From positions 12,809 through 76,808 of the forward strand of contig DHFT01000039.1 in assembly GCA_002402375.1 (NCBI GenBank): a stretch of 64,000 bases of DNA. Reading direction: 5' to 3'. This DNA comes from Elusimicrobia bacterium UBA4817. Lineage in GTDB: Bacteria > Elusimicrobiota > UBA8919. The notes beneath the pieces were generated by a model. The model made no database searches, was not told the origin of the DNA, and saw only the letters and a program-made list of their open reading frames with translations. Position numbers and translations under genes: made by a program. Every line of letters begins with the position of its first letter. Position 1 is the stretch's first letter. Shown piece by piece: positions 17,669 through 54,751 of the stretch.

Positions 17669-17701
17669 GAATAAATTCACCTTTACAAAAAACATATTAT
17701 A

Positions 17702-17843
17702 CTCTTCTATCATCCGGACTTTACCGTCGGTATCTGAATTTCACAGATTCGGTCCCGAACATTTTTAATAAAAAATGTGAGAGATTAGCGGACTTTTACC
17801 GCCGGTCGGGAATTCCTGTTTAGGTCACCCCACCCCGAAGAGT
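17702..17843 (-). promoter_or_regulatory. FMN riboswitch (RFN element) leading the rib operon
   Basis: The minus strand reads 'CTCTTCGGGGTGGGGTGACCTAAACAGGAATTCCCGACCGGCGGTAAAAGTCCGC…GGGACCGAATCTGTGAAATTCAGATACCGACGGTAAAGTCCGGATGATAGAAGAG', matching the RFN consensus blocks GGGG(C/T)GGGTGAAATTCCC, GACCGGCGGTA.AAGTCCGC and CCGACGGTAAAGTCCGGATG. Confidence 0.85.
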
Positions 17844-17849
17844 AATGTA

Positions 17850-43806: not shown

Positions 43807-44649
43807 TCAAGGTTTTTTTATTAGTTCATTCAAACTCCCCGTTCTGTAACCCTCCAAATCAAGCGTAATATATGTGTAGTTATATTTTTTCAGGGCAGCA
43901 ACTATTTTTTTGTGAATATTGTTTTTGAATATTTGGTTTAACTGGTTTCCATCAATTTCTATTCTCGCGGTATCTTCATAATCACGCAGACGAAGATTCT
44001 TCAAATTAAGTTTTTTCAGTTTGGTTTCTGCGTCAGATATTTTTTTCAGTTTTTCGGAAGTTATTTTATGTCCGTAAGGAAACCTTGAAGCGAGACAGGG
44101 TGAAGCATCTTTGTTCCATGTTGGAAGTTTTAATTTTTTTGATAGAGCCCGTATATCTTTTTTTGTAAGTTTTGCGTAAGATAGCGGATGTCTTACATTC
44201 CATTTTTTTGCTGCTTTCCTACCGGGACGAAAATCATTTCTGTCAGAATAATTTGTGCCATCACAAATAGTTTCAATTTTATTTTCAGTTGCACATTTAT
44301 CTAAATGAGCAAACAACTCGTTTTTACACCAGTAACATCTGTCCGGCGTATTGCGTACGAAGTTTTTGTTGCTCATTTCGTCGGTTTTCAGGAAGAAATG
44401 TTTGATGCCGGATTGTTTAATAATTTTTTTTGCAAAGGATAAATCATCTTTTGGATATGTCTGGGAAATTGCGGTGGAGGTTGTGACATTTTTTTTGCCG
44501 AGTGTGTCAATCGCAACTTTTAATAAAAATGTTGAATCAACACCGCCGGAGTAAGCGATTAAAATTTTTTTATATTTTTCTAATAATCTTTTTAATCTTT
44601 CCAATTTTTCAATCTTTGAATCTTTTACCTGTTTCCGCAAACCAGCCAC
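43807..44649 (-). CDS. LarE-like PP-loop ATP pyrophosphatase (TIGR00268 family)
   Basis: 280 aa; 'IAYSGGVDSTFLL' PP-loop, 'CYWCK' Cys pair. Confidence 0.65.
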   Translation of the reverse strand: MAGLRKQVKDSKIEKLERLKRLLEKYKKILIAYSGGVDSTFLLKVAIDTLGKKNVTTSTAISQTYPKDDLSFAKKIIKQSGIKHFFLKTDEMSNKNFVRNTPDRCYWCKNELFAHLDKCATENKIETICDGTNYSDRNDFRPGRKAAKKWNVRHPLSYAKLTKKDIRALSKKLKLPTWNKDASPCLASRFPYGHKITSEKLKKISDAETKLKKLNLKNLRLRDYEDTARIEIDGNQLNQIFKNNIHKKIVAALKKYNYTYITLDLEGYRTGSLNELIKKP

Positions 44650-45151
44650 CTCCGAGATGGTGAATCGTTTTTATTTTGTCCGTCTTAATATATTCGTCAA
44701 AAAGTTTATCGTCGGCATCTGCATAAACGATTTTTGAGACAAAAAGCACAACATCACCGTATTTATATTGATTGATTACTTTACATTCAAGATGGGCGAA
44801 ACATTCTTTGATTTTCGGCGGTTTCACTTTTTGAGAGTTTATTGCGGTAAATTTGGCTCGCTTAAATTTGTCAGTATCTTTCCCGGATACGGAGCCGCAA
44901 TACAAAACCTTTTTTATAAGTTTTTTGTCGGGTATATTTACAACAAATTCTTTTGTTTTTTTTATCAGTTTTTGCGAGTATGCTTGTTCCCCCATAGCAA
45001 TTACCAAAAGCGGCGGTTCGGAATTGACAACGGTAAGCCATGCAAGGGTCATTATATTTGGTTTTCCGATTTTATCAACAGTTGTAATTAAAACAACGGG
45101 TCCGTGATTTATCAGTCGGTAGGCAATTTCCGGTTTGATATTTTTTAACAT
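44609..45151 (-). CDS. flavin reductase-like FMN-binding split-barrel protein
   Basis: 'HGPVVLITT…MTLAWLTVV' flavin-reductase domain. Start moved to the internal ATG (MLKNIK…) so it no longer overlaps the btuB terminator. Confidence 0.6.
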   Translation of the reverse strand: MLKNIKPEIAYRLINHGPVVLITTVDKIGKPNIMTLAWLTVVNSEPPLLVIAMGEQAYSQKLIKKTKEFVVNIPDKKLIKKVLYCGSVSGKDTDKFKRAKFTAINSQKVKPPKIKECFAHLECKVINQYKYGDVVLFVSKIVYADADDKLFDEYIKTDKIKTIHHLGGGWFAETGKRFKD

Positions 45152-45180
45152 AGAATAAAAACAGTATAGTTTTTTTTGAG

Positions 45181-45222
45181 AAAAAATCAAGAAAAAAAGA
45201 AGACGGCACTTAAGTGCCGTCT
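45181..45222 (-). terminator. intrinsic terminator downstream of the TonB-dependent receptor
   Basis: Perfect hairpin 'agacggcac-ttaa-gtgccgtct' followed on the minus strand by a long U-tract. Confidence 0.75.
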
Positions 45223-45244: not shown

Positions 45245-47110
45245 TTAGTCCCACAGATACAGATTTATCCCGCCTGAAAATGTTCTTCCGGGAAGCGGAT
45301 AATCTTCTCTCGCGAAATATCTTTTGTTAAAAATATTTTCACAGGAAAAATAAACTTCTGCCTGAAGAATTTTCCGGCTTACTTTCAAGTTCGCAAGAGT
45401 ATATCCTGGAATTTTTGGTTTCTCTATTTTATGTGTGTATTCAACACCGAGTTTTGTTTGAAGTTTCAGTGGTGCTAAATAATTCAGAAAATAATTCAAG
45501 CGATGTTTTGGTGTGTATTGCAAAATTTTATATGTTCCCCCCTCCTGTTTCCCTTTACTTTCAAGGAAGGTATAATTCAAACTCTGTGTCAGTTTTTTCA
45601 CAATACTACTTTCTGCTTCAATCTCAACTCCTCTTGAAAAAACCTTGCCGACATTTGAAGGTGTCCATATACCAGTTTCATCAGGCGCCCATTGAATAAA
45701 ATCCTTTACATCGCTGTAAAATAGTGTTATCTTTGAAACCAGAATTTCTTTTAATTTATACTCAATACCAAAATCACTCCCAACAGATGTTTCAGGTTTT
45801 AAGTTTGGATTTCCCGGCATAAATGGGTCAGGCCAGTATAAATCATTAAATGTTGGTGCCCTGAAAGCCCGTCCAATGGTTGAAGAAAGTTTGAAATTAT
45901 TGTTGATTTTGTAGATATTGACAATCCTCGGATTCAACTGCCCACCAAAAACATTGTTGTAATCGTATCTTGTTCCAATTGTTGTTGTCATCGGTTCAAG
46001 ATTAAATGTTTTTTGAGCAAAAATTGCAGAAGCGTCTGTCCATTTGTCAATATCGGTTGTTTTGGTAATTTCATTCTTTTTCTTATATCTGTCGTTTTTT
46101 CCCTCAACTCCTGCAGTTATGTCATACAAAGTATCAATCTGTATATTTGCTCCAAGGGTTTTTGAGATACCAATATCATCATCAGGTGAAAAATCCCAAG
46201 TTTCAGGATGTGTATCCGGGTCTTTGTAATGAAGATTATTCTGCTGAAAATAAATTTTGGATTGCAATTTTGTTTCATTCGCAATCTCTTTTTTGTAATT
46301 TAACTCGTAAGATTGTTTGGTTGTTTTTTGATTAGCATTTGGCGTCTCTGCTGTTTTTTCTTTTTCATTGTCATAATCAGCAAGTTTTGTGAAATTTCGT
46401 CCAGGTGTTTCAAGTTCTGATGTTAAGAAACCGTTGCTTAAAGAGATTTCTCCGTATTTTTCTAAATCATAACCGATTTTTGCGGAAAAATCCGTTGAAT
46501 CATAATCAGAATTATCCCTGAAACCGTCCGTTATATTTTTCCCGCCCGATAAACATAAGTTTGCTTTTCCCGGCATAGCGGTAAAGTTCATTTTGTAATT
46601 TTGCGTGTTGAAACTTCCCTGCTCAATGCCGATTTCGGTTTTGGGTTTTACGGCGGTTGCTTTTTTTGTGATGATGTTGACAACACCGCCCAAGGCATTT
46701 GCGCCGTAAAGGGCGGACGCCGGACCGCGCAGTATCTCAATCCGTTCTATATTTTCAGACGGAATTTCGGTAAGATTTGCCGAACCCAGCGATGTGTCGT
46801 TAACCGTGCGGCCGTCAACCATAACAAGTACCTGCTGTGCGGAAGCCCCGCCGCTTCGGATTCTCAGTTCAGATTGCGAACCGAGTGTGCCGTATTTTGA
46901 GACCTCTACAATACCGGTTTTATTTTTCAGAATTTCACCGACATTTTTTGCGTCGGAATTTTTTATTTCCTCTTCCGATATCACGGTTATATTTGTCGCT
47001 GTTTTTTCAACAGAAACCTCTTTTCTTAATCCGATAAACACTGCTGTTTCCTGTGCATAAAGCACACCCATTCCCGCTAATAGTATTGCTCCCCAAAAAA
47101 CTTTTTTCAT
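45245..47110 (-). CDS. btuB: TonB-dependent outer-membrane receptor (BtuB-like, cobalamin/corrinoid)
   Basis: 621 aa; signal peptide, TonB box, plug and 22-strand barrel ending in Phe/Trp; sits directly 3' of a cobalamin riboswitch. Confidence 0.8.
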   Translation of the reverse strand: MKKVFWGAILLAGMGVLYAQETAVFIGLRKEVSVEKTATNITVISEEEIKNSDAKNVGEILKNKTGIVEVSKYGTLGSQSELRIRSGGASAQQVLVMVDGRTVNDTSLGSANLTEIPSENIERIEILRGPASALYGANALGGVVNIITKKATAVKPKTEIGIEQGSFNTQNYKMNFTAMPGKANLCLSGGKNITDGFRDNSDYDSTDFSAKIGYDLEKYGEISLSNGFLTSELETPGRNFTKLADYDNEKEKTAETPNANQKTTKQSYELNYKKEIANETKLQSKIYFQQNNLHYKDPDTHPETWDFSPDDDIGISKTLGANIQIDTLYDITAGVEGKNDRYKKKNEITKTTDIDKWTDASAIFAQKTFNLEPMTTTIGTRYDYNNVFGGQLNPRIVNIYKINNNFKLSSTIGRAFRAPTFNDLYWPDPFMPGNPNLKPETSVGSDFGIEYKLKEILVSKITLFYSDVKDFIQWAPDETGIWTPSNVGKVFSRGVEIEAESSIVKKLTQSLNYTFLESKGKQEGGTYKILQYTPKHRLNYFLNYLAPLKLQTKLGVEYTHKIEKPKIPGYTLANLKVSRKILQAEVYFSCENIFNKRYFAREDYPLPGRTFSGGINLYLWD

Positions 47111-47289
47111 TTTTCCTCCAAAATTTTTATTTACTATTTTTCCATTTCTACTTTTAACCTGACGCGTAGCGTCACACTGAACTTGATTCAGTGTCTCGTT
47201 GAGAGATGCCGAAACTAGTTCGGCATGACACTTCGTGTCACTTTTAAGTTTTTATTTTCATTTCTGCCTCCCTTTCTCTCGAAGAGAAT

Positions 47290-47440
47290 TTTATTGCAGA
47301 CAGACAGATTTCCTGACTCAGGTTCGTCCGAAATTTCGCCTTCCCATCCCTATTTATCCGGACAGTGGCATTTATGAAATTTCATCCCCTTCACAGTAGC
47401 GGGACTGTTCCGGAATTACACCGGATTCCCTATTCTGCCT
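47290..47440 (-). promoter_or_regulatory. cobalamin (B12) riboswitch #1
   Basis: The minus strand reads 'AATAGGGAATCCGGTGTAATTCCGGAACAGTCCCGCTACTGTGAAGGGGATGAAA…AATGCCACTGTCCGG…GGGAAGGCG', containing the B12 box GCCACTG and the conserved GGTG.AA.TCC / CCCGC.ACTGT elements. Confidence 0.85.
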
Positions 47441-48216
47441 ACATTTGACACCAAAATTATATACGGTTTTTTTGATATAGGATTTTTTTCTACGACTACA
47501 ACCGTTTTATAAACCTCTTCAATAATTTGATAGGTTAAAACATCCGAAGGTATTCCGATTTTATGCATATTGCCGTTATTGAGAAGCATTATTCTATCGC
47601 AGTACTCGCTTGCTAAATTCAAATCGTGCAAAACCATCATCACCGTAAGTCCAAGGTTTGTATTTAATTTTTTTGTAAGGTCCAAAATTCTTATCTGATG
47701 CGCTATATCTAAATGCGCCGTCGGTTCATCCAGCACAAGCAGTTTCGGTTGTTGAACAATAGCACGGGCGATAAAAACAAGTTGTCTTTCACCGCCGCTT
47801 AATTCCAATATAGGACGGTTTCGTAAATTAAATGTTTCGGTTAATAACATTGCTTGTTCAACAATTTCTTCGTCTTGTTTCGTTTCTAAAAATTGTAATT
47901 TGGAATGATATGGCGTTCTGCCTAATTGCACGATTTCTTCCGCAGTCATGTTAAAGTATGATTCTGAAAATTGCGTCACCACAGCCATTTTTTTAGCCAG
48001 TTCGTTAAGTCCTGTTTTTTTTAGAGATTTCCCTTCAAAAATAATCTGTCCTGTCTGCGGTTTAATTATCTTACTTATCGCCCGAAGCAGTGTTGTTTTA
48101 CCGGAACCGTTAGGGCCGATTATTCCGAGTATTTCTTTGTTTTTTAGTTCAAAGTTAATATCTTTTAAGACGAACTTATTATTGTATCCGCAAACAAGAT
48201 TTTTTACTTCAAGCAT
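47416..48216 (-). CDS. btuD: ABC transporter ATP-binding protein (BtuD/FecE-type)
   Basis: 266 aa; Walker A 'GPNGSGKTT', 'LSGGERQ', Walker B 'LLVLDEPT'. Confidence 0.85.
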   Translation of the reverse strand: MLEVKNLVCGYNNKFVLKDINFELKNKEILGIIGPNGSGKTTLLRAISKIIKPQTGQIIFEGKSLKKTGLNELAKKMAVVTQFSESYFNMTAEEIVQLGRTPYHSKLQFLETKQDEEIVEQAMLLTETFNLRNRPILELSGGERQLVFIARAIVQQPKLLVLDEPTAHLDIAHQIRILDLTKKLNTNLGLTVMMVLHDLNLASEYCDRIMLLNNGNMHKIGIPSDVLTYQIIEEVYKTVVVVEKNPISKKPYIILVSNVGRIGNPV

Positions 48217-48217
48217 A

Positions 48218-49213
48218 TTATTTCCGTTTGTTTAAGAAATAGATAAACATCATTCCGCCGATAATTCCCGTAATTACGCCGACCGGAAGTTCTATGGGTG
48301 CAATAACTGTTCTTGCAAGTGTATCACATAAAATTAAAAATGCCCCGCCTGTTAAAAATGAGGCAATTATAAGTATTCTGTGGTCAGAGGCAATAAACAT
48401 TCGGACGAAATGAGGAATGACCAAACCGACAAATCCGATAACGCCGGCGACGGATACGGCTATGCCGGTTAACAGCGATGATAAAATAAAAAGTGCTTTT
48501 TTTGTTTTTTCGGTGTCCACACCTAAGTGCGACGCTTCTTCTTCACCCAAAGCAAAAGCATTTAAGTCGTGACAAAAAAGATATGTTCCAAACAGACCGA
48601 ATACAGATAAGAAAACTGTTATTTTTATAAGAAGCATATTCGGTTCTTCCAAAGAACCCATTATCCAGAATATAATTCCGTGAAGGTCTTCTGTTTGGGA
48701 GACAGCCATTATAAACATAATCAAAGATGATGAAATAAAACTGAGCATTACGCCTGTTAAAAGAAGTCCTTGAATTTTTAATATACCCTTTTTAAGAGTT
48801 AAAAAATAAACGAGCAAAACAACCAGAATAGCACCCGCAAAACCTGAAACAGGCAGAGATAAAATAGATGTATGGTATATTCCCAAAACGATGTTCAAAC
48901 ATACGCCGAGAGCGGCTCCGCCCGAAATACCGAGTGTGTACGGTTCAACCAGTGGATTGCGGAAAAGTCCTTGCAGAATAACGCCCGCCAGAGATAATGA
49001 GCCGCCGACTGCAAAGCCCAAAATAATTCGCGGCAGACGAATATCAAAAATGATGCTGTATTCGGTAGAACCCCTGCCTTCAAAGATTGTCCAAAAAATT
49101 TTTTTTAATGGTATTCCAGAAGAGCCGACGCATAAAGAAAAAATGCTGACAGCAAAAAGAACTCCTGCCAAAATTAATATCTGTATAGACCAACGGAATA
49201 ATTTTTTATTCAT
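48218..49213 (-). CDS. btuC: FecCD-family ABC permease (BtuC-type)
   Basis: 331 aa; about 9 TM helices, FecCD signature regions. Confidence 0.85.
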   Translation of the reverse strand: MNKKLFRWSIQILILAGVLFAVSIFSLCVGSSGIPLKKIFWTIFEGRGSTEYSIIFDIRLPRIILGFAVGGSLSLAGVILQGLFRNPLVEPYTLGISGGAALGVCLNIVLGIYHTSILSLPVSGFAGAILVVLLVYFLTLKKGILKIQGLLLTGVMLSFISSSLIMFIMAVSQTEDLHGIIFWIMGSLEEPNMLLIKITVFLSVFGLFGTYLFCHDLNAFALGEEEASHLGVDTEKTKKALFILSSLLTGIAVSVAGVIGFVGLVIPHFVRMFIASDHRILIIASFLTGGAFLILCDTLARTVIAPIELPVGVITGIIGGMMFIYFLNKRK

Positions 49214-49229
49214 TTATTTTTTCACATTC

Positions 49230-49345
49230 TTAATAATGGAGCGAGGGAAAAATTTCTGAAGAGCCTCAATTTGCGACTTCTTTTTTCCAGGAGCAAATTG
49301 CAGAGCGACCACAAGGGAGCGTCTCAAAGAAATTTGTTCCCGAGC
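49230..49345. repeat. GAGCGAC-rich intergenic repeat (second copy)
   Basis: See 25880..26035; lies between the btuC start and btuF stop. Confidence 0.5.
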
Positions 49346-49350
49346 GACCG

Positions 49351-50178
49351 TTATTTTTTTGGATATAAAATCTCAACAATTTCATTTAATGTTTCTGCAA
49401 AACTTACGGGCGTGGGACTGCAGAGTTTGTAAGAATCAACAATGTAAATTCGGTTATTTTCTACTGCGTTTATTGTTTTATATTTTTTCCAGATTTTTTT
49501 TTCTTCCTCAACTGCGATTCCCATAGTTGCTATAATAATCACATCTGGATTTTGAGCAACGACCTCTTCTATGCTATAAAATCCGGTTTTGGTGTTCGCG
49601 ATATTTACCCCTCCGGCAAATTCAATAAAATCATTTATGAATGAATCTTTTGTAGCGGTAAAGAGCGGCTTTGCACCTATTTGAACAAAAACCTTTTGTC
49701 CCGCGTTAACAGAATTTTTGGTCATTGTTTTCTTTTTTATCAATTCTACGTTACCCCTTACTTTCTCAATAATTTTTTCTGCCTCTTTTCTATTACCGAT
49801 AATTTCACCTAATTCCAGAAACTGACGGCAAATTTCATTGAAATTTTTTGCATATGAAAACTGAATAACCTTTATTCCTAAATTGTTTAATTTTTTTATG
49901 GTCTTGGGATTTGTCATTGAACTTGCAATAACCAAATCCGGCTTAAGAGCGAAAATTTTTTCCAAGTCCTGCTCTATTATAGTTCCTATTTTTTCTTTGT
50001 TTTTTGCATCTTCCGGAATCTTGCAATAAATTGTATTTCCTATAATTTTATCTTGTGCATTTAAGAGATAAAGTTGTTCTGTGAGGGTTGGTCCTAACGA
50101 GATAATTCTATCGGGAAAATCGGCGCTGTATAAAAAATTAAATCCGAGCATTAAAATTAAAAATATCTTCATATACAT
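49351..50178 (-). CDS. btuF: ABC transporter periplasmic substrate-binding protein (BtuF-like)
   Basis: 275 aa; signal peptide; class III substrate-binding fold similar to BtuF/FhuD. Confidence 0.75.
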   Translation of the reverse strand: MYMKIFLILMLGFNFLYSADFPDRIISLGPTLTEQLYLLNAQDKIIGNTIYCKIPEDAKNKEKIGTIIEQDLEKIFALKPDLVIASSMTNPKTIKKLNNLGIKVIQFSYAKNFNEICRQFLELGEIIGNRKEAEKIIEKVRGNVELIKKKTMTKNSVNAGQKVFVQIGAKPLFTATKDSFINDFIEFAGGVNIANTKTGFYSIEEVVAQNPDVIIIATMGIAVEEEKKIWKKYKTINAVENNRIYIVDSYKLCSPTPVSFAETLNEIVEILYPKK

Positions 50179-50882
50179 AAAATTAAAAGCACGAGGGTTT
50201 CAATTATTTCGTTTAATGCGCCTAATATATCTCCTGTAATTCCGCCGATTTTCTTGTTTATAAGTTTCAAAAAAATAAAGGAAACAAAAAATACTGCGAG
50301 CAGAATGAAAAATCCTTTCAGTTCAAAAACAAGAAAAGATATTAAAACTGCGATGATTGTAGCGATAAAAAAATCTTTTTTTGAAACGGTATCAATGAAA
50401 ATTTTTCCGAGTCCTTCATTTTTTGCCGGTTTGGAAATTGTACATGCAAAAACCAGACACCACCGGCTTAAAGTCGGAAAGAGTAGTAACGACGGATATA
50501 AATTTTTTTGCGGAATGCTTTGGAGTGCAAAAAATTTCATTCCGAGGATACAAAAAATCCCGATAACACCCATTGCTCCGATGTGGGCATCATCCATAAT
50601 TCTTAAAATATCACTTTTATTTTTCCCCGCGTAAAACCCGTCAAGCATGTCGGCAAAACCGTCCAAATGAAGTCCGCCGGTAATTATAACAAGCGAGACG
50701 ATAACCAGCATATCAACCACATTTTTGGAGAATAAAAGATAACCTAAATAATTTACCGATATAAGAAACCCGCCGATAAATAATCCGATAAGCGGAAAAA
50801 AAATTGCGCAGTTTTCAAATTCTTTTTTCACAACAGGAAAAACTGTTAAAAACCCAATTGCTGAAAGAAATTTTTTTATCAT
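50169..50882 (-). CDS. cobS: adenosylcobinamide-GDP ribazoletransferase (cobalamin synthase)
   Basis: 237 aa polytopic membrane protein; 'FLTVFPV…DGFADM…DG' CobS motifs. Confidence 0.85.
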   Translation of the reverse strand: MIKKFLSAIGFLTVFPVVKKEFENCAIFFPLIGLFIGGFLISVNYLGYLLFSKNVVDMLVIVSLVIITGGLHLDGFADMLDGFYAGKNKSDILRIMDDAHIGAMGVIGIFCILGMKFFALQSIPQKNLYPSLLLFPTLSRWCLVFACTISKPAKNEGLGKIFIDTVSKKDFFIATIIAVLISFLVFELKGFFILLAVFFVSFIFLKLINKKIGGITGDILGALNEIIETLVLLILCI

Positions 50883-51946
50883 TCTAATTTTTTACTTACA
50901 CCGGCACTTTCAAAGGTTGCCATTTCTGCGAGTATTTTACAGCCCGCATCAATAATGTTCAATCCTAATGCCGCGCCGGTTCCTTCGCCGAGCCGGAGAT
51001 TCAAATCAAGCACAGGTTTTAATCCGAGATGTTTTAAGATAACATTGTGCCCTTGTTCCACGGAACAATGTGAGGCGATCAGATATTCCACGACCGTCGG
51101 CTGTAATGTATATGCCAGAAGTGCGGCTGCCCCAGAGATAAAACCGTCAATAACCACAGGAATTTTATGAGATGCTCCTGCAAGAATTACGCCGGCAAGC
51201 CCTCCGATTTCAAACCCTCCAATTTTGGAAAGAACATCAAGTCCGTCTTTTTTATCCGGATTATTCAGAACGATTGCTTTTTTTATTGCTGCAATTTTGT
51301 TTTTTAACATTTTGTCGTCAATACCGGTTCCCCTACCAGTAATTTTTTCAACATCAACCCCGCAAATTACCGAGGTGATTGCTGAAGACGGTGTTGTATT
51401 TGCGATACCCATATCTCCTGTGCCGATGATATCAATTCCATTTTTTAATTCTTCTTCAACAAGTTCTATACCTGCTTCAATTGATTTTACTGCTTCATTC
51501 TTTGTCATTGCCGAACCTTTTGTAAAATTTTTCGTCCCAAAATTTATTTTTTTGTCTCTAAATCCTGGATTTGTAACTTCTATTTTTTCAGCAACTCCAC
51601 AATCTGCGACAATAACTTTCGCACCGGTATGCCTTGCTAAAACGTTTATTCCCGCCCCTCCCCGTAAAAAATTATAAACCATCTGCGTCGTCACTTCTTT
51701 TGGATAGCAAGAAACTCCCTCTTCAACAATTCCATGGTCACCCGCGAGTGTAAATATCACTTTTTTCTTTAGTTCCGGTTTTTCTTTTCCTGTGATTGCT
51801 ACGACTTGACAAGCAAGTTCTTCAAGCCGTCCCAAAGAACCAAGGGGTTTTGTGAGATTATCCAACCGCTTCTGTGTTTGTTCTAAAAGTTTTTCATCAA
51901 GCGGCTTAATTCTATTAATAACAGTATCAATTTTTTTACTAATCAC
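50879..51946 (-). CDS. cobT: nicotinate-nucleotide--dimethylbenzimidazole phosphoribosyltransferase
   Basis: 355 aa; 'GDMGIANTT' and 'GEGTGAAL' CobT signatures. Confidence 0.9.
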   Translation of the reverse strand: MISKKIDTVINRIKPLDEKLLEQTQKRLDNLTKPLGSLGRLEELACQVVAITGKEKPELKKKVIFTLAGDHGIVEEGVSCYPKEVTTQMVYNFLRGGAGINVLARHTGAKVIVADCGVAEKIEVTNPGFRDKKINFGTKNFTKGSAMTKNEAVKSIEAGIELVEEELKNGIDIIGTGDMGIANTTPSSAITSVICGVDVEKITGRGTGIDDKMLKNKIAAIKKAIVLNNPDKKDGLDVLSKIGGFEIGGLAGVILAGASHKIPVVIDGFISGAAALLAYTLQPTVVEYLIASHCSVEQGHNVILKHLGLKPVLDLNLRLGEGTGAALGLNIIDAGCKILAEMATFESAGVSKKLE

Positions 51947-52473
51947 TTTTCCTCCAGTTCGTATTCTTTTATATCGGCAAAATAATGTTTCCAGAAACCG
52001 TTTTTAAGGATTTTTTCAATTTTCGTTATTTTTATTTTTTTTCTGAAAATCGGTCCGTCATAAACATAAGTATGAAACTCGCCGTTTTCTCCGCAGGGAC
52101 AAATATTTTTATTAATCAAAAATTTTAATGTTTCTCTGTCAAATTCTCTGCCGACAAAATTTTCATCAAATAAATCCGCTTTTGCACTTACAACAACTGC
52201 CTTAAAGCCAAGTTCAATAAATTGAATAGCAACATCTTCCGGTTTTAAGTTCCATAACGGTTCAAGCGGTGTTATCCCCACTTCATTGCATACCCTTTCA
52301 ATCCAGCTTCTGTGTTCATCAAGATAGATATCGCCGAAAACCATTCCGGAAATTCCGTATTTTTCTTTTAATCCGAAAACAGCATCCTTAAATTCTTCCT
52401 CGTATTTTTTCATATCGGGACTTACCTCTTTTTGAATGACGGGAATTCCTATTGCTTCTGCCTGTGTTTTCAT
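51943..52473 (-). CDS. Dph6/MJ0570-like PP-loop ATPase (C-terminal part as called; reading frame continues upstream to about 52610)
   Basis: The same frame read upstream of the called Met gives 'KIKIISSWSGGKDSCLALHKTLQQRHQVLYL…', i.e. the SGGKDS PP-loop, with no in-frame ATG/GTG/TTG between the cobU stop and the motif. Confidence 0.6.
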   Translation of the reverse strand: MKTQAEAIGIPVIQKEVSPDMKKYEEEFKDAVFGLKEKYGISGMVFGDIYLDEHRSWIERVCNEVGITPLEPLWNLKPEDVAIQFIELGFKAVVVSAKADLFDENFVGREFDRETLKFLINKNICPCGENGEFHTYVYDGPIFRKKIKITKIEKILKNGFWKHYFADIKEYELEEK

Positions 52474-52619
52474 AAGTTTGTCGTCTATCCCGTGAAAGCA
52501 TCCCCGTTTTGTCTCTTTGGATATAAAATTTAATAAATATAAAACCTGATGTCTTTGCTGTAATGTTTTATGTAAAGCAAGACAAGAATCCTTTCCCCCC
52601 GACCATGATGAAATTATTT

Positions 52620-53162
52620 TTATTTTACGCCTCCTTTAATTAAAATCGGAATACCGGCAGCCATAAGATATACTTTGTCAGCAAATTTTGAAACTGTCCT
52701 ATTTGCATTTCCAAGTACATCCCTGAAATCTCTTGCAAGTTTATTTTTTGGAACGATTCCACCGCCTACCTCGTTTGAAACAATTAGTATTTTTTTATTT
52801 TTATTTTTTATCTCTTCAAGAAATTTCTTAATTTCTGCAACTATTTTTTGTTCGCTTTTGCCGTTCACCAATCGCCCGGAGACAAAAATTGTGAGGCAAT
52901 CTATTATTGCCGTATTGAAGTTTTCCTTAAATATTTCCGAAAGTTCTTTTTTAATTTCTACTGTTCGGAAATTTTTAGGTCTTGATTTTTTATGTTTTTC
53001 AATTCTTATTTTCATTTCAGAATCAGAGGGCTTTGCCGTTGCTGCGAACAATATATTCTTTTCTTTTTTAGCCCTCCCATAAGTCGTCGGACAGGCAAGT
53101 TCAATTGCAAAAGAACTCTTCCCGCTCCGGGCCCCGCCTAAAATAAAAATAATTTCACCCAT
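52620..53162 (-). CDS. cobU: bifunctional adenosylcobinamide kinase / adenosylcobinamide-phosphate guanylyltransferase
   Basis: 180 aa; P-loop 'GGARSGKSSFA', CobU/CobP family length and motifs. Confidence 0.85.
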   Translation of the reverse strand: MGEIIFILGGARSGKSSFAIELACPTTYGRAKKEKNILFAATAKPSDSEMKIRIEKHKKSRPKNFRTVEIKKELSEIFKENFNTAIIDCLTIFVSGRLVNGKSEQKIVAEIKKFLEEIKNKNKKILIVSNEVGGGIVPKNKLARDFRDVLGNANRTVSKFADKVYLMAAGIPILIKGGVK

Positions 53163-53674
53163 CAGTATTCTATTCCTTTTCGTGATTTTATGCCCGTGTA
53201 ATACGGATGTTTGACAAGCCGCATATCGGTTATTAAATCGGCAAGTTTAAGTATTTTTTTGTGAGCGCTTCTTCCCGTGATAACGATCTCCATTTTTTTA
53301 GGTTTGTTTTTTAATAAGCGAACAATTTTTTCAACATCAATATATTTATCACGGATAGCGATGTTTAATTCATCAAGAATCAGCAAATCGCATTTTTTTT
53401 CTTTGATGATTTTTGCAATTTTTTCCAGTGCTTTTTCGCATTCGTTTTTGATATCTTCAATCTTTATGTTTTTATAGAAATGCGGGTGTTTAGATGCAAA
53501 CGAATATATTTTCAGATTTTTAAGATGTTTGAGAACTTTCTGTTCCCCGTAAAATTTTTTGTCCTTAAAAAATTGTATTATGGAAACATTTTTGTTATGA
53601 CCTAAAGCCCGTATTGCCAATCCGATTGCAGCGGTTGTTTTACCTTTGCCATTGCCGGTGTAAATTTGTATCAT
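53162..53674 (-). CDS. cobO: cob(I)yrinic acid a,c-diamide adenosyltransferase (CobA/CobO/BtuR type)
   Basis: 'MIQIYTGNGKGKTTAAIGLAIRALGH' P-loop; start moved to the internal ATG because the upstream part of the long ORF is the riboswitch. Confidence 0.85.
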   Translation of the reverse strand: MIQIYTGNGKGKTTAAIGLAIRALGHNKNVSIIQFFKDKKFYGEQKVLKHLKNLKIYSFASKHPHFYKNIKIEDIKNECEKALEKIAKIIKEKKCDLLILDELNIAIRDKYIDVEKIVRLLKNKPKKMEIVITGRSAHKKILKLADLITDMRLVKHPYYTGIKSRKGIEY

Positions 53675-53689
53675 TTTTTCTCCATAAAC

Positions 53690-53850
53690 AAAAAACCCAA
53701 CTCCAGAGAAGTTGAGCAAACTTTCTCCCCGCGGAGTTTTTGTAATTGATAGACCGGGCTTCGCTTCGCTCGGTCGGACTAAAATCCGACCTACAAAAAC
53801 ATCACCGTTGCGGGGCAGCTTCCGAATTACACGGAATTCCTTCAATTACA
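53690..53850 (-). promoter_or_regulatory. cobalamin riboswitch #2 with terminator-type expression platform
   Basis: The minus strand reads 'GAAGGAATTCCGTGTAATTCGGAAGCTGCCCCGCAACGGTGATG…AAGCCCGGTC…CGGGGAGAAAG', nearly identical in its conserved blocks to riboswitch #1. It is followed by 'CAACTTCTCTGGAGTTGGGTTTTTTGTTT' (hairpin plus U-tract) just before the cobO ATG. Confidence 0.75.
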
Positions 53851-53857
53851 ATTTTTA

Positions 53858-53885
53858 ATTATATTATTTTTAACAAAAATGTCAA
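53858..53885 (-). promoter_or_regulatory. sigma70 promoter (TTGACA-N16-TATAAT) for riboswitch #2 and the cob operon
   Basis: The minus strand reads TTGACATTTTTGTTAAAAATAATATAAT, ending about 7 nt before the aptamer. Confidence 0.5.
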
Positions 53886-54751
53886 GAAAAAAGATGACTA
53901 TGATTTTTTTCCAAATTGTTTTTATATTTTTTCAGTTCTATAACAGCAGAATAAGGCACTTTTGTCTTTCCCATTATAGGCGGCTCGCCGTTCATTGCAC
54001 CGTGGCAGTCGCTTCCCCCTGTCATAATCATTCCGAATTTGTCCGCCATTTTTTTGAATTTGTCGGTTTCATCCGCCGAATGTTTTGTGTGCCAAACCTC
54101 AATACCCTTTAATCCGAAATTAGCAAGAGATTTTACAACATTGCAATTGATACTGTTAAAATGCGGATGCGCCAAAACCGGAATCCCGCCGACTTGTAAA
54201 ATCATTTTTATAGCTTCGTCGGGTGATAAACTGAATTTCGGAACATATGCAGGTTTACCGTCGCCGAGATATTTCCAGAATGCTTCCTGCGTATGCGAAA
54301 CGGATTTATTTTCAACGAGCATTTTTGCGAAATGAAGCCGCCCTATTACTCCGATGCCCGCTATTTCAAACAGCCGTTGTTCGTCAATCGTAATTCCCAG
54401 ACCTTTCAATTTATCCAAAATATGATATGCCCGTCTTTCTCTTGCCTTTCTGAAAAGTTTTAATTTTTGCTGAAAAGATGAATCCTCCCAGTTTATGAAA
54501 TATCCGAGTATGTGCATTTCCTGCTGATGAGAATTTTTTAATTCCACCGAAAGTTCTATTCCCGGTATTACTTCAATCCCTCTTTTTGAACCCTCTTTGA
54601 TTGCACTGGGTATTCCTTCGGTTGTATCGTGGTCGGTTATGCTGATGGTTGCAAGTCCTACTTTCTGTGCATACCTTACGCTTTCTTCCGGCGAGAAAGT
54701 TCCGTCTGAGTATTTTGTGTGAGTATGCAAATCCGCAAAAAGAGTATCCAT
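53882..54751 (-). CDS. PHP-domain phosphoesterase (TrpH/YciV-like)
   Basis: 289 aa; 'ADLHTHTKYSDG…ITDHD' PHP motifs. Confidence 0.75.
   Translation of the reverse strand: MDTLFADLHTHTKYSDGTFSPEESVRYAQKVGLATISITDHDTTEGIPSAIKEGSKRGIEVIPGIELSVELKNSHQQEMHILGYFINWEDSSFQQKLKLFRKARERRAYHILDKLKGLGITIDEQRLFEIAGIGVIGRLHFAKMLVENKSVSHTQEAFWKYLGDGKPAYVPKFSLSPDEAIKMILQVGGIPVLAHPHFNSINCNVVKSLANFGLKGIEVWHTKHSADETDKFKKMADKFGMIMTGGSDCHGAMNGEPPIMGKTKVPYSAVIELKKYKNNLEKNHSHLFS

Follow-up and report, generated by a model that had tools for sequence, protein, structure and literature searches.

The PP-loop ATPases of the DUF71/COG2102 family (Pfam PF01902, Diphthami_syn_2) include Dph6 (EC 6.3.1.14), the solved homologues PF0828 (3RJZ) and PH1257 (2D13), and a subgroup named DUF71-B12, which carries an ENGEF/YH motif in place of the EGGE/DxE motif of Dph6 (de Crécy-Lagard et al. 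2012, Biol Direct 7:32, PMC3541065). The link between this subgroup and B12 salvage was described and analysed in the same study, where 75 of 102 members adjoin btuCDF-type transporters. The family was listed in 2016 as 'function unknown, B12 salvage' (PMC5041015), and our literature search found no later biochemical characterisation of DUF71-B12. With regard to translation, ATGA gene pairs, in which stop and start codons overlap by four nucleotides and a Shine-Dalgarno (SD) sequence lies in the 3' end of the upstream gene, were investigated by Huber et al. (2019, PMC6728339); bacteria can use such overlaps for termination-reinitiation, a process in which the SD is often important. The near-cognate starts AUU, AUA, AUC and CUG (translation table 11) are one base off AUG and have an SD ahead of them. 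Initiation at AUA in E. coli reaches about 1-2% of that at AUG (bioRxiv 10.1101/063800), and sub-optimal starts tend to be offset by stronger SDs (PMC5622118).

The locus described here combines these features. It lies in a 64,000-nt stretch (the window) of contig DHFT01000039.1 from Elusimicrobia bacterium UBA4817, and contains a 226-codon minus-strand PP-loop gene flanked by cobU and cobT (Table 1). We consider it highly probable that this is a functional DUF71-B12 gene, whose ancestral ATG was lost to ATA by one transition and whose likely start is now AUA. The frame begins past a TAA at 52638..52636 and translates as RRRK-I-K-I-I-S-S-W-S-G-G-K-D-S (codons AGG AGG CGT AAA ATA AAA ATA ATT TCA TCA TGG TCG GGG GGA AAG GAT TCT). 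Read from its upstream stop, it contains no ATG, GTG or TTG ahead of codon 51, in agreement with the initial annotation, which had also correctly located the cobU stop, the G6 run and the sole nearby ATG, one base out of frame. The AGGAGG ribosome-binding site that it reported is present (52635..52630, part of AAAGGAGG), but lies 7 nt ahead of the cobU stop, in the last cobU codons, and does not overlap it. The ATA and ATT codons that it named as sole candidate starts did not include the ATA overlapping the stop. With Met51 as the start, the ATP site would be lost, the 176-aa product being devoid of the PP-loop, and no SD precedes this ATG, the upstream sequence being GACGACAAACTT. A scan of leaders in every stop-to-stop frame of 150 codons or more across the whole window gave no second case of a non-canonical start, the DUF71-B12 gene being the sole minus-strand gene with a long start-less leader beyond an intergenic or riboswitch explanation; organism-wide use of non-canonical starts is therefore unsupported.

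Table 1. Features of the DUF71-B12 locus and its operon (positions in the window).
Feature	Position	Strand	Remarks
DUF71-B12 PP-loop ATPase gene	51943..52623	-	probable ATA start 52623..52621, TGA stop 51945..51943; 226 codons
Candidate ATA start	52621..52623	-	overlaps cobU stop as ATAA; aligned with orthologue ATGs
cobU stop TAA	52620..52622	-	TGA in ATG-type orthologues
Shine-Dalgarno AAAGGAGG	52630..52637	-	within last cobU codons; 6 nt ahead of ATA
PP-loop motif SGGKDS	52585..52602	-	TCG GGG GGA AAG GAT TCT; residues 8-13
G6 run (plus-strand C6)	52600..52595	-	inside SGGKDS
Out-of-frame ATG	52604..52606	-	from Ser-Trp codons TCA TGG; non-start
Internal Met51 ATG	52471..52473	-	first canonical in-frame start; caller start; 176-aa product
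ENGEFH motif	52072..52089	-	residues 179-184; published DUF71-B12 signature
cobO/btuR, corrinoid adenosyltransferase	53162..53674	-	ATG at 53674; GGAG then ATG at junction
cobU, adenosylcobinamide kinase/guanylyltransferase	52620..53162	-	PF02283 E 1e-50; NF004469 168.5 bits vs cutoff 161
cobT, lower-ligand phosphoribosyltransferase	50879..51946	-	PF02277 E 2e-140
cobS, btuF-like, btuC-like, btuD-like	47416..50882	-	complete the operon; PF02654, PF01497
Cobalamin riboswitch at operon head	53731..53901	-	RF00174 32.5 bits vs gathering score 31.5
Second cobalamin riboswitch	47470..47286		Rfam RF00174 search

The assignment to the MJ0570/DUF71 family of about 220 aa, made initially from the sequence, was borne out by Pfam: the product read from 52623 matches PF01902 over profile positions 2-210 of 219 (E 2e-58, 197.9 bits versus a cutoff of 23.2). 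It shares with Dph6, PF0828 and PH1257 the PP-loop fold, the SGGKDS loop and the 220-aa architecture, and residues 6-206 align with 3RJZ and 2D13 (E about 3e-29) with the SGGKDS motifs in register, the beta-1 strand being 4 residues shorter than in these solved homologues. A Dph6-like function does not hold. The protein scores 146.2 bits against the NCBIfam Dph6 equivalog TIGR03679, under its cutoff of 197.3, and carries ENGEFH where Dph6 has EGGE/DxE with the catalytic Glu188, which is thus replaced by His. Moreover, diphthamide is not made by bacteria (PMC3541065). 'Diphthine--ammonia ligase', as close relatives are called in the database, is consequently an over-annotation, in view of the sub-cutoff score, the Glu-to-His replacement and the bacterial host. 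The product instead displays the marks of DUF71-B12, namely, the ENGEF/YH motif (CGENGEFHT at residues 177-185, with ENGEFH kept by 95% or more of 119 homologues) and clustering with B12 salvage and transport genes; a further mark of the subgroup, the presence of CbiB together with the absence of bacterial CbiZ, is defined at the genome level, and neither cbiB nor cbiZ is present in the operon. Identity to full-length orthologues of 225-227 aa amounts to 70-85%. The window product keeps 67 of the 68 columns conserved in at least 95% of the 119 homologues, including all 19 of those falling in residues 6-50, and the single deviation is L216A.

The neighbours identified by Pfam confirm that the gene sits inside a cobalamin salvage operon, in the order cobO-cobU-DUF71-cobT-cobS-btuF-btuC-btuD, of which it is the third cistron. 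A 227-aa TTG ORF for cobO was discarded as an over-extension, since the PF02572 match begins at residue 57 and the orthologue has 170 aa. The riboswitch at the operon head is followed by a hairpin and a T-run, terminator-like CAACTTCTCTGGAGTTGGGTTTTTTG. Four-nucleotide overlaps occur at the cobU/DUF71, DUF71/cobT and cobT/cobS junctions, the GTG start of cobT and the DUF71 stop together forming GTGA; tight overlaps are also found at the cobS-btu junctions of the window, and FecCD and ABC_tran domains were found in the syntenic locus L081. Synteny with cobU/cobT/cobS/btu is kept in all close relatives, such as L081, L083 and L088. The operon thus resembles the termination-reinitiation operons of PMC6728339 in having several such overlaps along its length, but differs from ATGA pairs in that the overlap ahead of DUF71 is ATAA, with a non-AUG restart codon. 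The placement in a B12 cluster, initially regarded as unexpected, had already been described in 2012 (PMC3541065). The gene is a member of a known family in a known B12 context, and not a new system; compared with the DUF71-B12 subgroup, with which it shares Pfam family, motif and the habit of sitting among B12 genes, the protein itself is no different, and the peculiarity is the ATA start. Among distant relatives (36-57% identity), the only ones yielded by the contig search, the close Elusimicrobiota loci having come from exact-protein look-ups, co-occurrence appeared weaker than the published 75 of 102 (PMC3541065): in a crude survey biased by the search pattern, tblastn with the window Cob/Btu proteins revealed clear cob/btu neighbours in only about 15 of 80 ENGEFH-type loci, and a cobalamin riboswitch lay within 6 kb in 2 of 11 sampled Bacteroidota loci. 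Pedobacter (L036, L049) has the gene downstream of such a riboswitch.

Comparison of the cobU-DUF71 junctions points to the origin of the unusual start. Seven orthologous loci have the junction AAAATGAAAAT, in which the DUF71 ATG overlaps the cobU stop as ATGA, while the junction AAAATAAAAAT occurs in the window and in four to five other assemblies, representing three haplotypes. More fully, the ATG type reads ...AAAATGAAAAT(A/T)ATTTC (L082, L083, L084/85, L086, L090, L092/93) and the ATA type AAAGGAGG(C/T)GTAAAATAAAAATAATTTC (window, L088, L089, L081/L091, L087). One G-to-A change turns ATG into ATA and TGA into TAA simultaneously. The two alleles stand side by side among lineages about 88% identical, and the locus is mosaic: over its first 100 or so coding bases, the window resembles L082, of ATG type, more closely than L081, of ATA type. 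Since the ATA-bearing junction has itself diverged between haplotypes, the ATA allele is not brand new. All three diverged ATA haplotypes keep the full frame and intact catalytic motifs, and a sister allele is translated from ATA, with Met at position 1, in the NCBI protein MFA5778877.1 (P0122). In the alignment of 119 homologues, 66 begin at the position of ATA 52623. We infer that this ATA, orthologous to the ATG of relatives, is the best start candidate. Compared with the usual near-cognate starts, the ATG-to-ATA event is caught here in evolution, both alleles coexisting; in addition, the same mutation converts the upstream TGA stop into TAA, and the ATA alleles have the strongest SD.

Selection was examined in a pair of ATA alleles, the window and L081, over codons 2-50 and over the whole gene. 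Codons 2-50 show 15 synonymous and 10 nonsynonymous differences (dS 0.78, dN 0.09, omega 0.12), and omega for the whole gene is 0.14, compared with 0.09-0.11 in ATG-ATG orthologue pairs; neutrality is rejected in both cases (binomial P = 2.7e-5 and 6e-14, respectively). As judged from these substitutions, purifying selection acts on the 49 codons that precede the first canonical start, with the caveat that, the locus being mosaic, recombination may have spread the ATA allele after part of the divergence in the test had arisen. The persistence of the ATA downgrade, together with selection on codons which only an upstream start expresses, the 67 of 68 conserved residues retained and the fact that the G-run is formed by Gly-Gly codons, leads us to reject frameshift, indel and pseudogene, all listed initially as options, in favour of another of them, rare non-canonical initiation, to which the ATA-ATG orthology and the selection both point.

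The SD may help to explain how such a start is tolerated. Calculated with a generic anti-SD, not that of the organism itself, the duplex energy is -12.0 kcal/mol for the window and -15.8 kcal/mol for L081, versus -5.5 to -10.5 kcal/mol for ATG-type orthologues. A strong SD is only partly specific to ATA alleles, as the ATG-type L092 (GGAGG) and L090 (AAGGAG) also have decent ones, but the strongest belong to the ATA alleles, which fits the compensation tendency reported in PMC5622118; this argument comes down to effectively one evolutionary event. In the scenario that we favour, the ancestral ATG, in ATGA overlap with the cobU stop, would have undergone a single G-to-A transition, giving ATA and at the same time changing the cobU TGA to TAA. 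Translation would then most likely start at AUA with initiator tRNA, giving MKIISSWSGGKDS..., probably aided both by the strong SD 6 nt upstream and by ribosomes terminating on the overlapping cobU stop (termination-reinitiation coupling). Such coupling and the strong SD would compensate for the low efficiency of AUA, measured in E. coli as roughly 50-100-fold weaker, and expression would be below that of the ATG-type relatives.

One competitor of a functional AUA start is a start-loss pseudogene, silenced by the ATG-to-ATA change, with a frame not yet decayed and an inactive Met51 product. The lack of a canonical start before codon 51, the 1-2% efficiency of AUA in E. coli and the L216A replacement at a highly conserved residue would agree with it, and recombination could join a recently functional ATG-type coding sequence to an ATA junction. 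It must nevertheless face the full frame kept in three ATA haplotypes, omega values of 0.12-0.14 resembling those of ATG orthologues, with neutrality rejected at both scales, the near-complete retention of conserved residues, and a junction that has diverged between haplotypes while bearing the strongest SD of the set; we regard it as unlikely. Similarly improbable is initiation on the second ATA (52617..52615) or on the ATT (52614..52612). Both are near-cognate and in the same frame, and ATT has the better record as a non-canonical start in nature, as in infC. However, their SD spacers of 12 and 15 nt compare poorly with the 6 nt of ATA 52623, they correspond to plain Ile codons (ATT or ATA) in ATG-type orthologues, they are not the position at which the 66 homologues begin, and their use would shorten a beta-1 strand that already lacks 4 residues. 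The codon used would thus be AUA 52623 rather than the next AUA or AUU.

A CobU-DUF71 fusion would need no start codon at all. At the end of cobU, GTA AAA TAA would allow a -1 slip of tRNA-Lys on A-AAA-UAA, AAA re-pairing as AAA one base back, beside the stop, and the -1 frame continues as ATA AAA ATA ATT..., so that the junction peptide would be ...KGGVKIKIISSW. We hold this to be very improbable: ancestrally and in the orthologues there are two distinct proteins, each with its own ATG, the 120 best homologue clusters, all 179-247 aa long, include no CobU fusion, and L083 is devoid of the A-AAA context. Moreover, the SD lies about 4 nt ahead of the shift site, a spacing linked to +1 rather than -1 stimulation (prfB, dnaX). 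As for frameshifting or slippage at the G6 run, by which the ATG at 52606 would be brought into frame with the PP-loop, or a one-base error in the run, their appeal stems from the ATG being 3 nt upstream of G6 and one base out of frame. Yet the G7-AAG of L081 and L087 is equal in total length to the G6-AAAG of the window, so that this is a synonymous GGA-to-GGG change. Orthologues use GGA GGA, GGT GGA, GGC GGG or GGG GGG for the two glycines, the ATG-type ones have no run, and L082 (TCG TGG) and L083 (TCT TGG) have no ATG there. The in-frame codons upstream, for KIISSW, are conserved and under selection, translation from that ATG would give MVGGKDS, without beta-1 or the Ser of the motif, and the same G6 occurs in the independent assemblies ERZ27315071 and ERZ27315072, which are distinguished from the window by cobU indels. 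Comparative sequence and these assemblies rule out the frameshift and the run error, to which we attach next to no probability.

Returning to the putatively AUA-initiated DUF71-B12 protein, its presumed role in salvage or remodelling is to adenylate a carboxylate of a corrinoid or of a related substrate. The reaction of the family could be an ATP-dependent ligation or adenylation of a corrinoid carboxylate, for instance, the re-amidation of deamidated corrinoids from the environment, an idea already put forward in the initial annotation. In 2012 a CbiZ-like hydrolysis had been proposed instead; the ligase or adenylation reading suits PP-loop chemistry better, according to a reviewer of that paper (PMC3541065). 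In other respects, the ATG-to-ATA change could represent adaptive tuning in this lineage, keeping DUF71 synthesis low and strictly tied to cobU translation. That either the ATP-dependent corrinoid-carboxylate chemistry or the adaptive tuning holds is, taking the two together, rather doubtful.

The gene poses a problem for annotation and neatly illustrates how a start codon can evolve. Because of the ATA start, gene callers truncate it: Prodigal-type callers give products of 176-179 aa without the ATP-binding loop (P0121, P0015, P0123), whereas homology-aware annotation recovers the full gene from ATA (P0122). For DUF71-B12, an open prediction since 2012, the locus adds one more B12-operon context and brings the function no nearer to being solved. 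With regard to translation, it offers a clean natural start-codon downgrade, under purifying selection, tied to a stop-codon upgrade upstream and accompanied by the strongest SD, and could be used to test AUA initiation and translational coupling in non-model organisms.

The minus strand carries all genes of the operon discussed here. The last codons of cobU are GTA AAA TAA, the stop occupying 52622..52620, and the DUF71 frame, one base out of register with cobU, opens past a TAA at 52638..52636, begins AGG AGG CGT AAA ATA AAA ATA ATT TCA TCA TGG TCG GGG GGA AAG GAT TCT (translated as RRRKIKIISSWSGGKDS) and closes with a TGA at 51945..51943. Since its earliest in-frame ATG, GTG or TTG is codon 51 (52473), mechanical ORF calling gives 176 residues. 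Read from 52623, the product matches nearly the entire Pfam PF01902 profile (Diphthami_syn_2, E 2e-58). When every long frame of the window was scanned, no other gene had an unexplained start-less leader. Re-reading of the frame, ORF call, Pfam match and neighbours confirmed the initial annotation, apart from two corrections: the AGGAGG said to overlap the cobU stop lies 7 nt ahead of it (52635..52630), and the ATA that does overlap that stop, at 52623..52621, was missing from the candidate starts.

The closest full-length proteins (70-85% identity), from Elusimicrobiota metagenomes, all begin with MKIISSWSGGKDS. Among orthologous loci, those of the ATG type (L082, L083, L084/85, L086, L090 and L092/93) share the junction ...AAAATGAAAAT(A/T)ATTTC..., where start codon and cobU stop overlap as ATGA, and those of the ATA type (the window, L088, L089, L081/L091 and L087) read ...AAAATAAAAATAATTTC.... 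L088 and L089 come from two ENA assemblies and represent almost the same strain population; L081/L091 is a ~188-kb contig present in an ENA and a JGI assembly, and L087 is from a Logan assembly. Comparison of the two junctions shows a single G-to-A transition that converted ATG into ATA and, in the same step, TGA into TAA. The orthologues' ATG aligns with ATA 52623..52621, the candidate start, and not with the downstream ATA or ATT proposed earlier; 66 of 119 homologues start at exactly this aligned position.

A sequencing indel, frameshifting or slippage at the G-run and recent pseudogenisation had also been considered. An indel was rejected, as the junction is identical throughout in the window, L088 and L089, which are separate assemblies of distinct variants because their cobU genes differ by in-frame indels. 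With regard to frameshifting, the G-run constitutes both glycine codons of SGGKDS, reading TCG GGG GGA AAG in the window and TCG GGG GGG AAG in L081 and L087, where the G7 reflects a synonymous change at unchanged length; ATG-type orthologues use GGA GGA, GGT GGA or GGC GGG. The Ser-Trp codons TCA TGG create the out-of-frame ATG, which is lost in L082 (TCG TGG) and L083 (TCT TGG), and a protein begun there would be devoid of strand beta-1 and the PP-loop's first serine; this explanation was thus discarded.

Pseudogenisation is contradicted by the pattern of substitution between the window and L081, two ATA carriers whose DNA is ~88% identical over the locus. Codons 2-50, expressible only via a start upstream of Met51, show 15 synonymous and 10 nonsynonymous differences (dS 0.78, dN 0.09, omega 0.12; P = 2.7e-5 versus neutral expectation), and the whole gene 45.8 and 34.2 (dS 0.47, dN 0.07, omega 0.14; P = 6e-14), close to the omega of 0.09-0.11 between ATG-type orthologue pairs. 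Further, of the 68 columns with at least 95% conservation among the 119 homologues, the window protein retains 67, including 19/19 within residues 6-50; its PP-loop region aligns from residue 6 onwards with PF0828 and PH1257, whose structures are solved. The sole departure is residue 216 (51976..51978, minus strand), Ala in the window and L081 versus Leu in 99% of the homologues (FADIKEY versus FLDIKEY).

Compared with L081, L082 and L087, the cobU-DUF71-cobT segment (50879..52800, minus strand) is a mosaic among ~88%-identical lineages, the nearest of which switches every few hundred bases. The window's first ~100 coding bases are nearer ATG-type L082 than ATA-type L081, its cobU 3' end and junction are nearer L081, and L087 is L081-like at the N-terminus and L082-like at the C-terminus. 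This pattern indicates frequent homologous recombination, so that part of the divergence may be older than the union of ATA with the window coding sequence. Nevertheless, the frame is intact in three ATA haplotypes and their junction flanks have diverged, which argues for an old and tolerated allele.

The Shine-Dalgarno (SD) sequence AAAGGAGG ends 6 nt ahead of the ATA. With a generic anti-SD, which may differ from the host's own, predicted duplex energies are -12.0 kcal/mol for the window, -15.8 kcal/mol for ATA-type L081 and L087, and -5.5 to -10.5 kcal/mol for seven ATG-type loci. Building of the strong SD altered the last CobU residues (KGGVK in the window versus KRSIK in L082), mostly beyond the Pfam CobU match (residues 5-173). 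Sub-optimal start codons have been reported to tend towards stronger SDs as compensation (PMC5622118), which the pairing of ATA with a strong SD fits, though as effectively one single event. The operon junctions are 4-nt overlaps (ATAA, GTGA, ATGA), an arrangement supporting termination-reinitiation in bacteria, often with SD help (PMC6728339). DUF71 is probably expressed from the AUA, using the SD and termination-reinitiation from the cobU overlap. In E. coli, initiation at AUA reaches roughly 1-2% of the AUG level (10.1101/063800), so the output of DUF71 is likely below that in ATG-type relatives. The NCBI record MFA5778877.1 (P0122, 229 aa) translates the L081 gene from ATA, Met first, so the non-canonical start is already public; other callers give truncated proteins of 176 or 179 aa.

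The product is a DUF71/COG2102 member and not Dph6, scoring 146 bits against the Dph6 equivalog cutoff of 197. Where Dph6 has an EGGE/DxE motif, it carries ENGEFH, and ENGEF/YH is the signature of the DUF71-B12 subgroup, known to cluster with B12 transport or salvage genes (75 of 102 adjoin btuCDF-type transporters; PMC3541065). The B12 setting that the initial annotation found surprising is thus a subgroup hallmark. DUF71-B12 has been suggested to take the place of bacterial CbiZ in salvaging pseudo-B12 (PMC3541065). A reviewer of that paper doubted that a PP-loop ligase fold would act as a hydrolase; re-amidation is a putative alternative. In 2016 the entry still read "function unknown" (PMC5041015), and we found no characterisation in later literature. 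Bacterial subgroup members (database proteins P0005, P0008, P0020 and others) are labelled 'diphthine--ammonia ligase' in NCBI records, a systematic over-annotation since they fall below the Dph6 cutoff and bacteria have no diphthamide (PMC3541065). Among the Bacteroidota loci L010-L052, many distant ENGEFH-type homologues (Chryseobacterium, Algoriphagus and others) lack both a recognisable cob/btu neighbour and a cobalamin riboswitch within 6 kb; of 11 loci sampled, only 2 have the riboswitch, both from Pedobacter. The association with B12 may not extend to the entire subgroup.

In the window, the neighbours are CobA/BtuR, CobU, CobT, CobS, BtuF-like binding protein, FecCD-type and ABC ATPase genes. 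Downstream of the riboswitch at the operon head lie a terminator-like hairpin and a T-run. A 227-aa cobO ORF (TTG start, 53845) extends into this riboswitch and is therefore over-extended; the likely start is ATG 53674. The TonB-dependent receptor is presumably an outer-membrane corrinoid transporter, and the two genes listed below it may belong to the same riboswitch-controlled unit. cobU itself shows in-frame indel polymorphism, coding for 180 aa in the window, 178 in L089 and 170 in L088, assemblies otherwise nearly identical.

Features of the window (coordinates in window positions)
Feature	Position	Strand	Remarks
DUF71-B12 gene	52623..51943	-	226 codons
cobU	52620..53162	-	
Cobalamin riboswitch 1	53901..53731	-	RF00174, 32.5 bits, just over gathering score; upstream of cobO
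Cobalamin riboswitch 2	47470..47286	-	strong, 100.6 bits; overlaps last 55 nt of btuD-like gene
TonB-dependent receptor	45245..47110	-	Plug and barrel; preceded by riboswitch 2
Flavin-reductase-like gene	45190..44609	-	downstream of the receptor
Second PP-loop protein	44649..43807	-	280 aa, GTG start; unrelated to DUF71; weak matches to NAD_synthase, ATP_bind_3, QueC
FMN riboswitch	17698..17846	-	96 bits; no relation to DUF71

The start-less frame is a real observation, now explained: the gene is a typical representative of a known family, and its mutated start codon most likely still works. It represents a useful annotation correction and a neat evolutionary example, not a new system.
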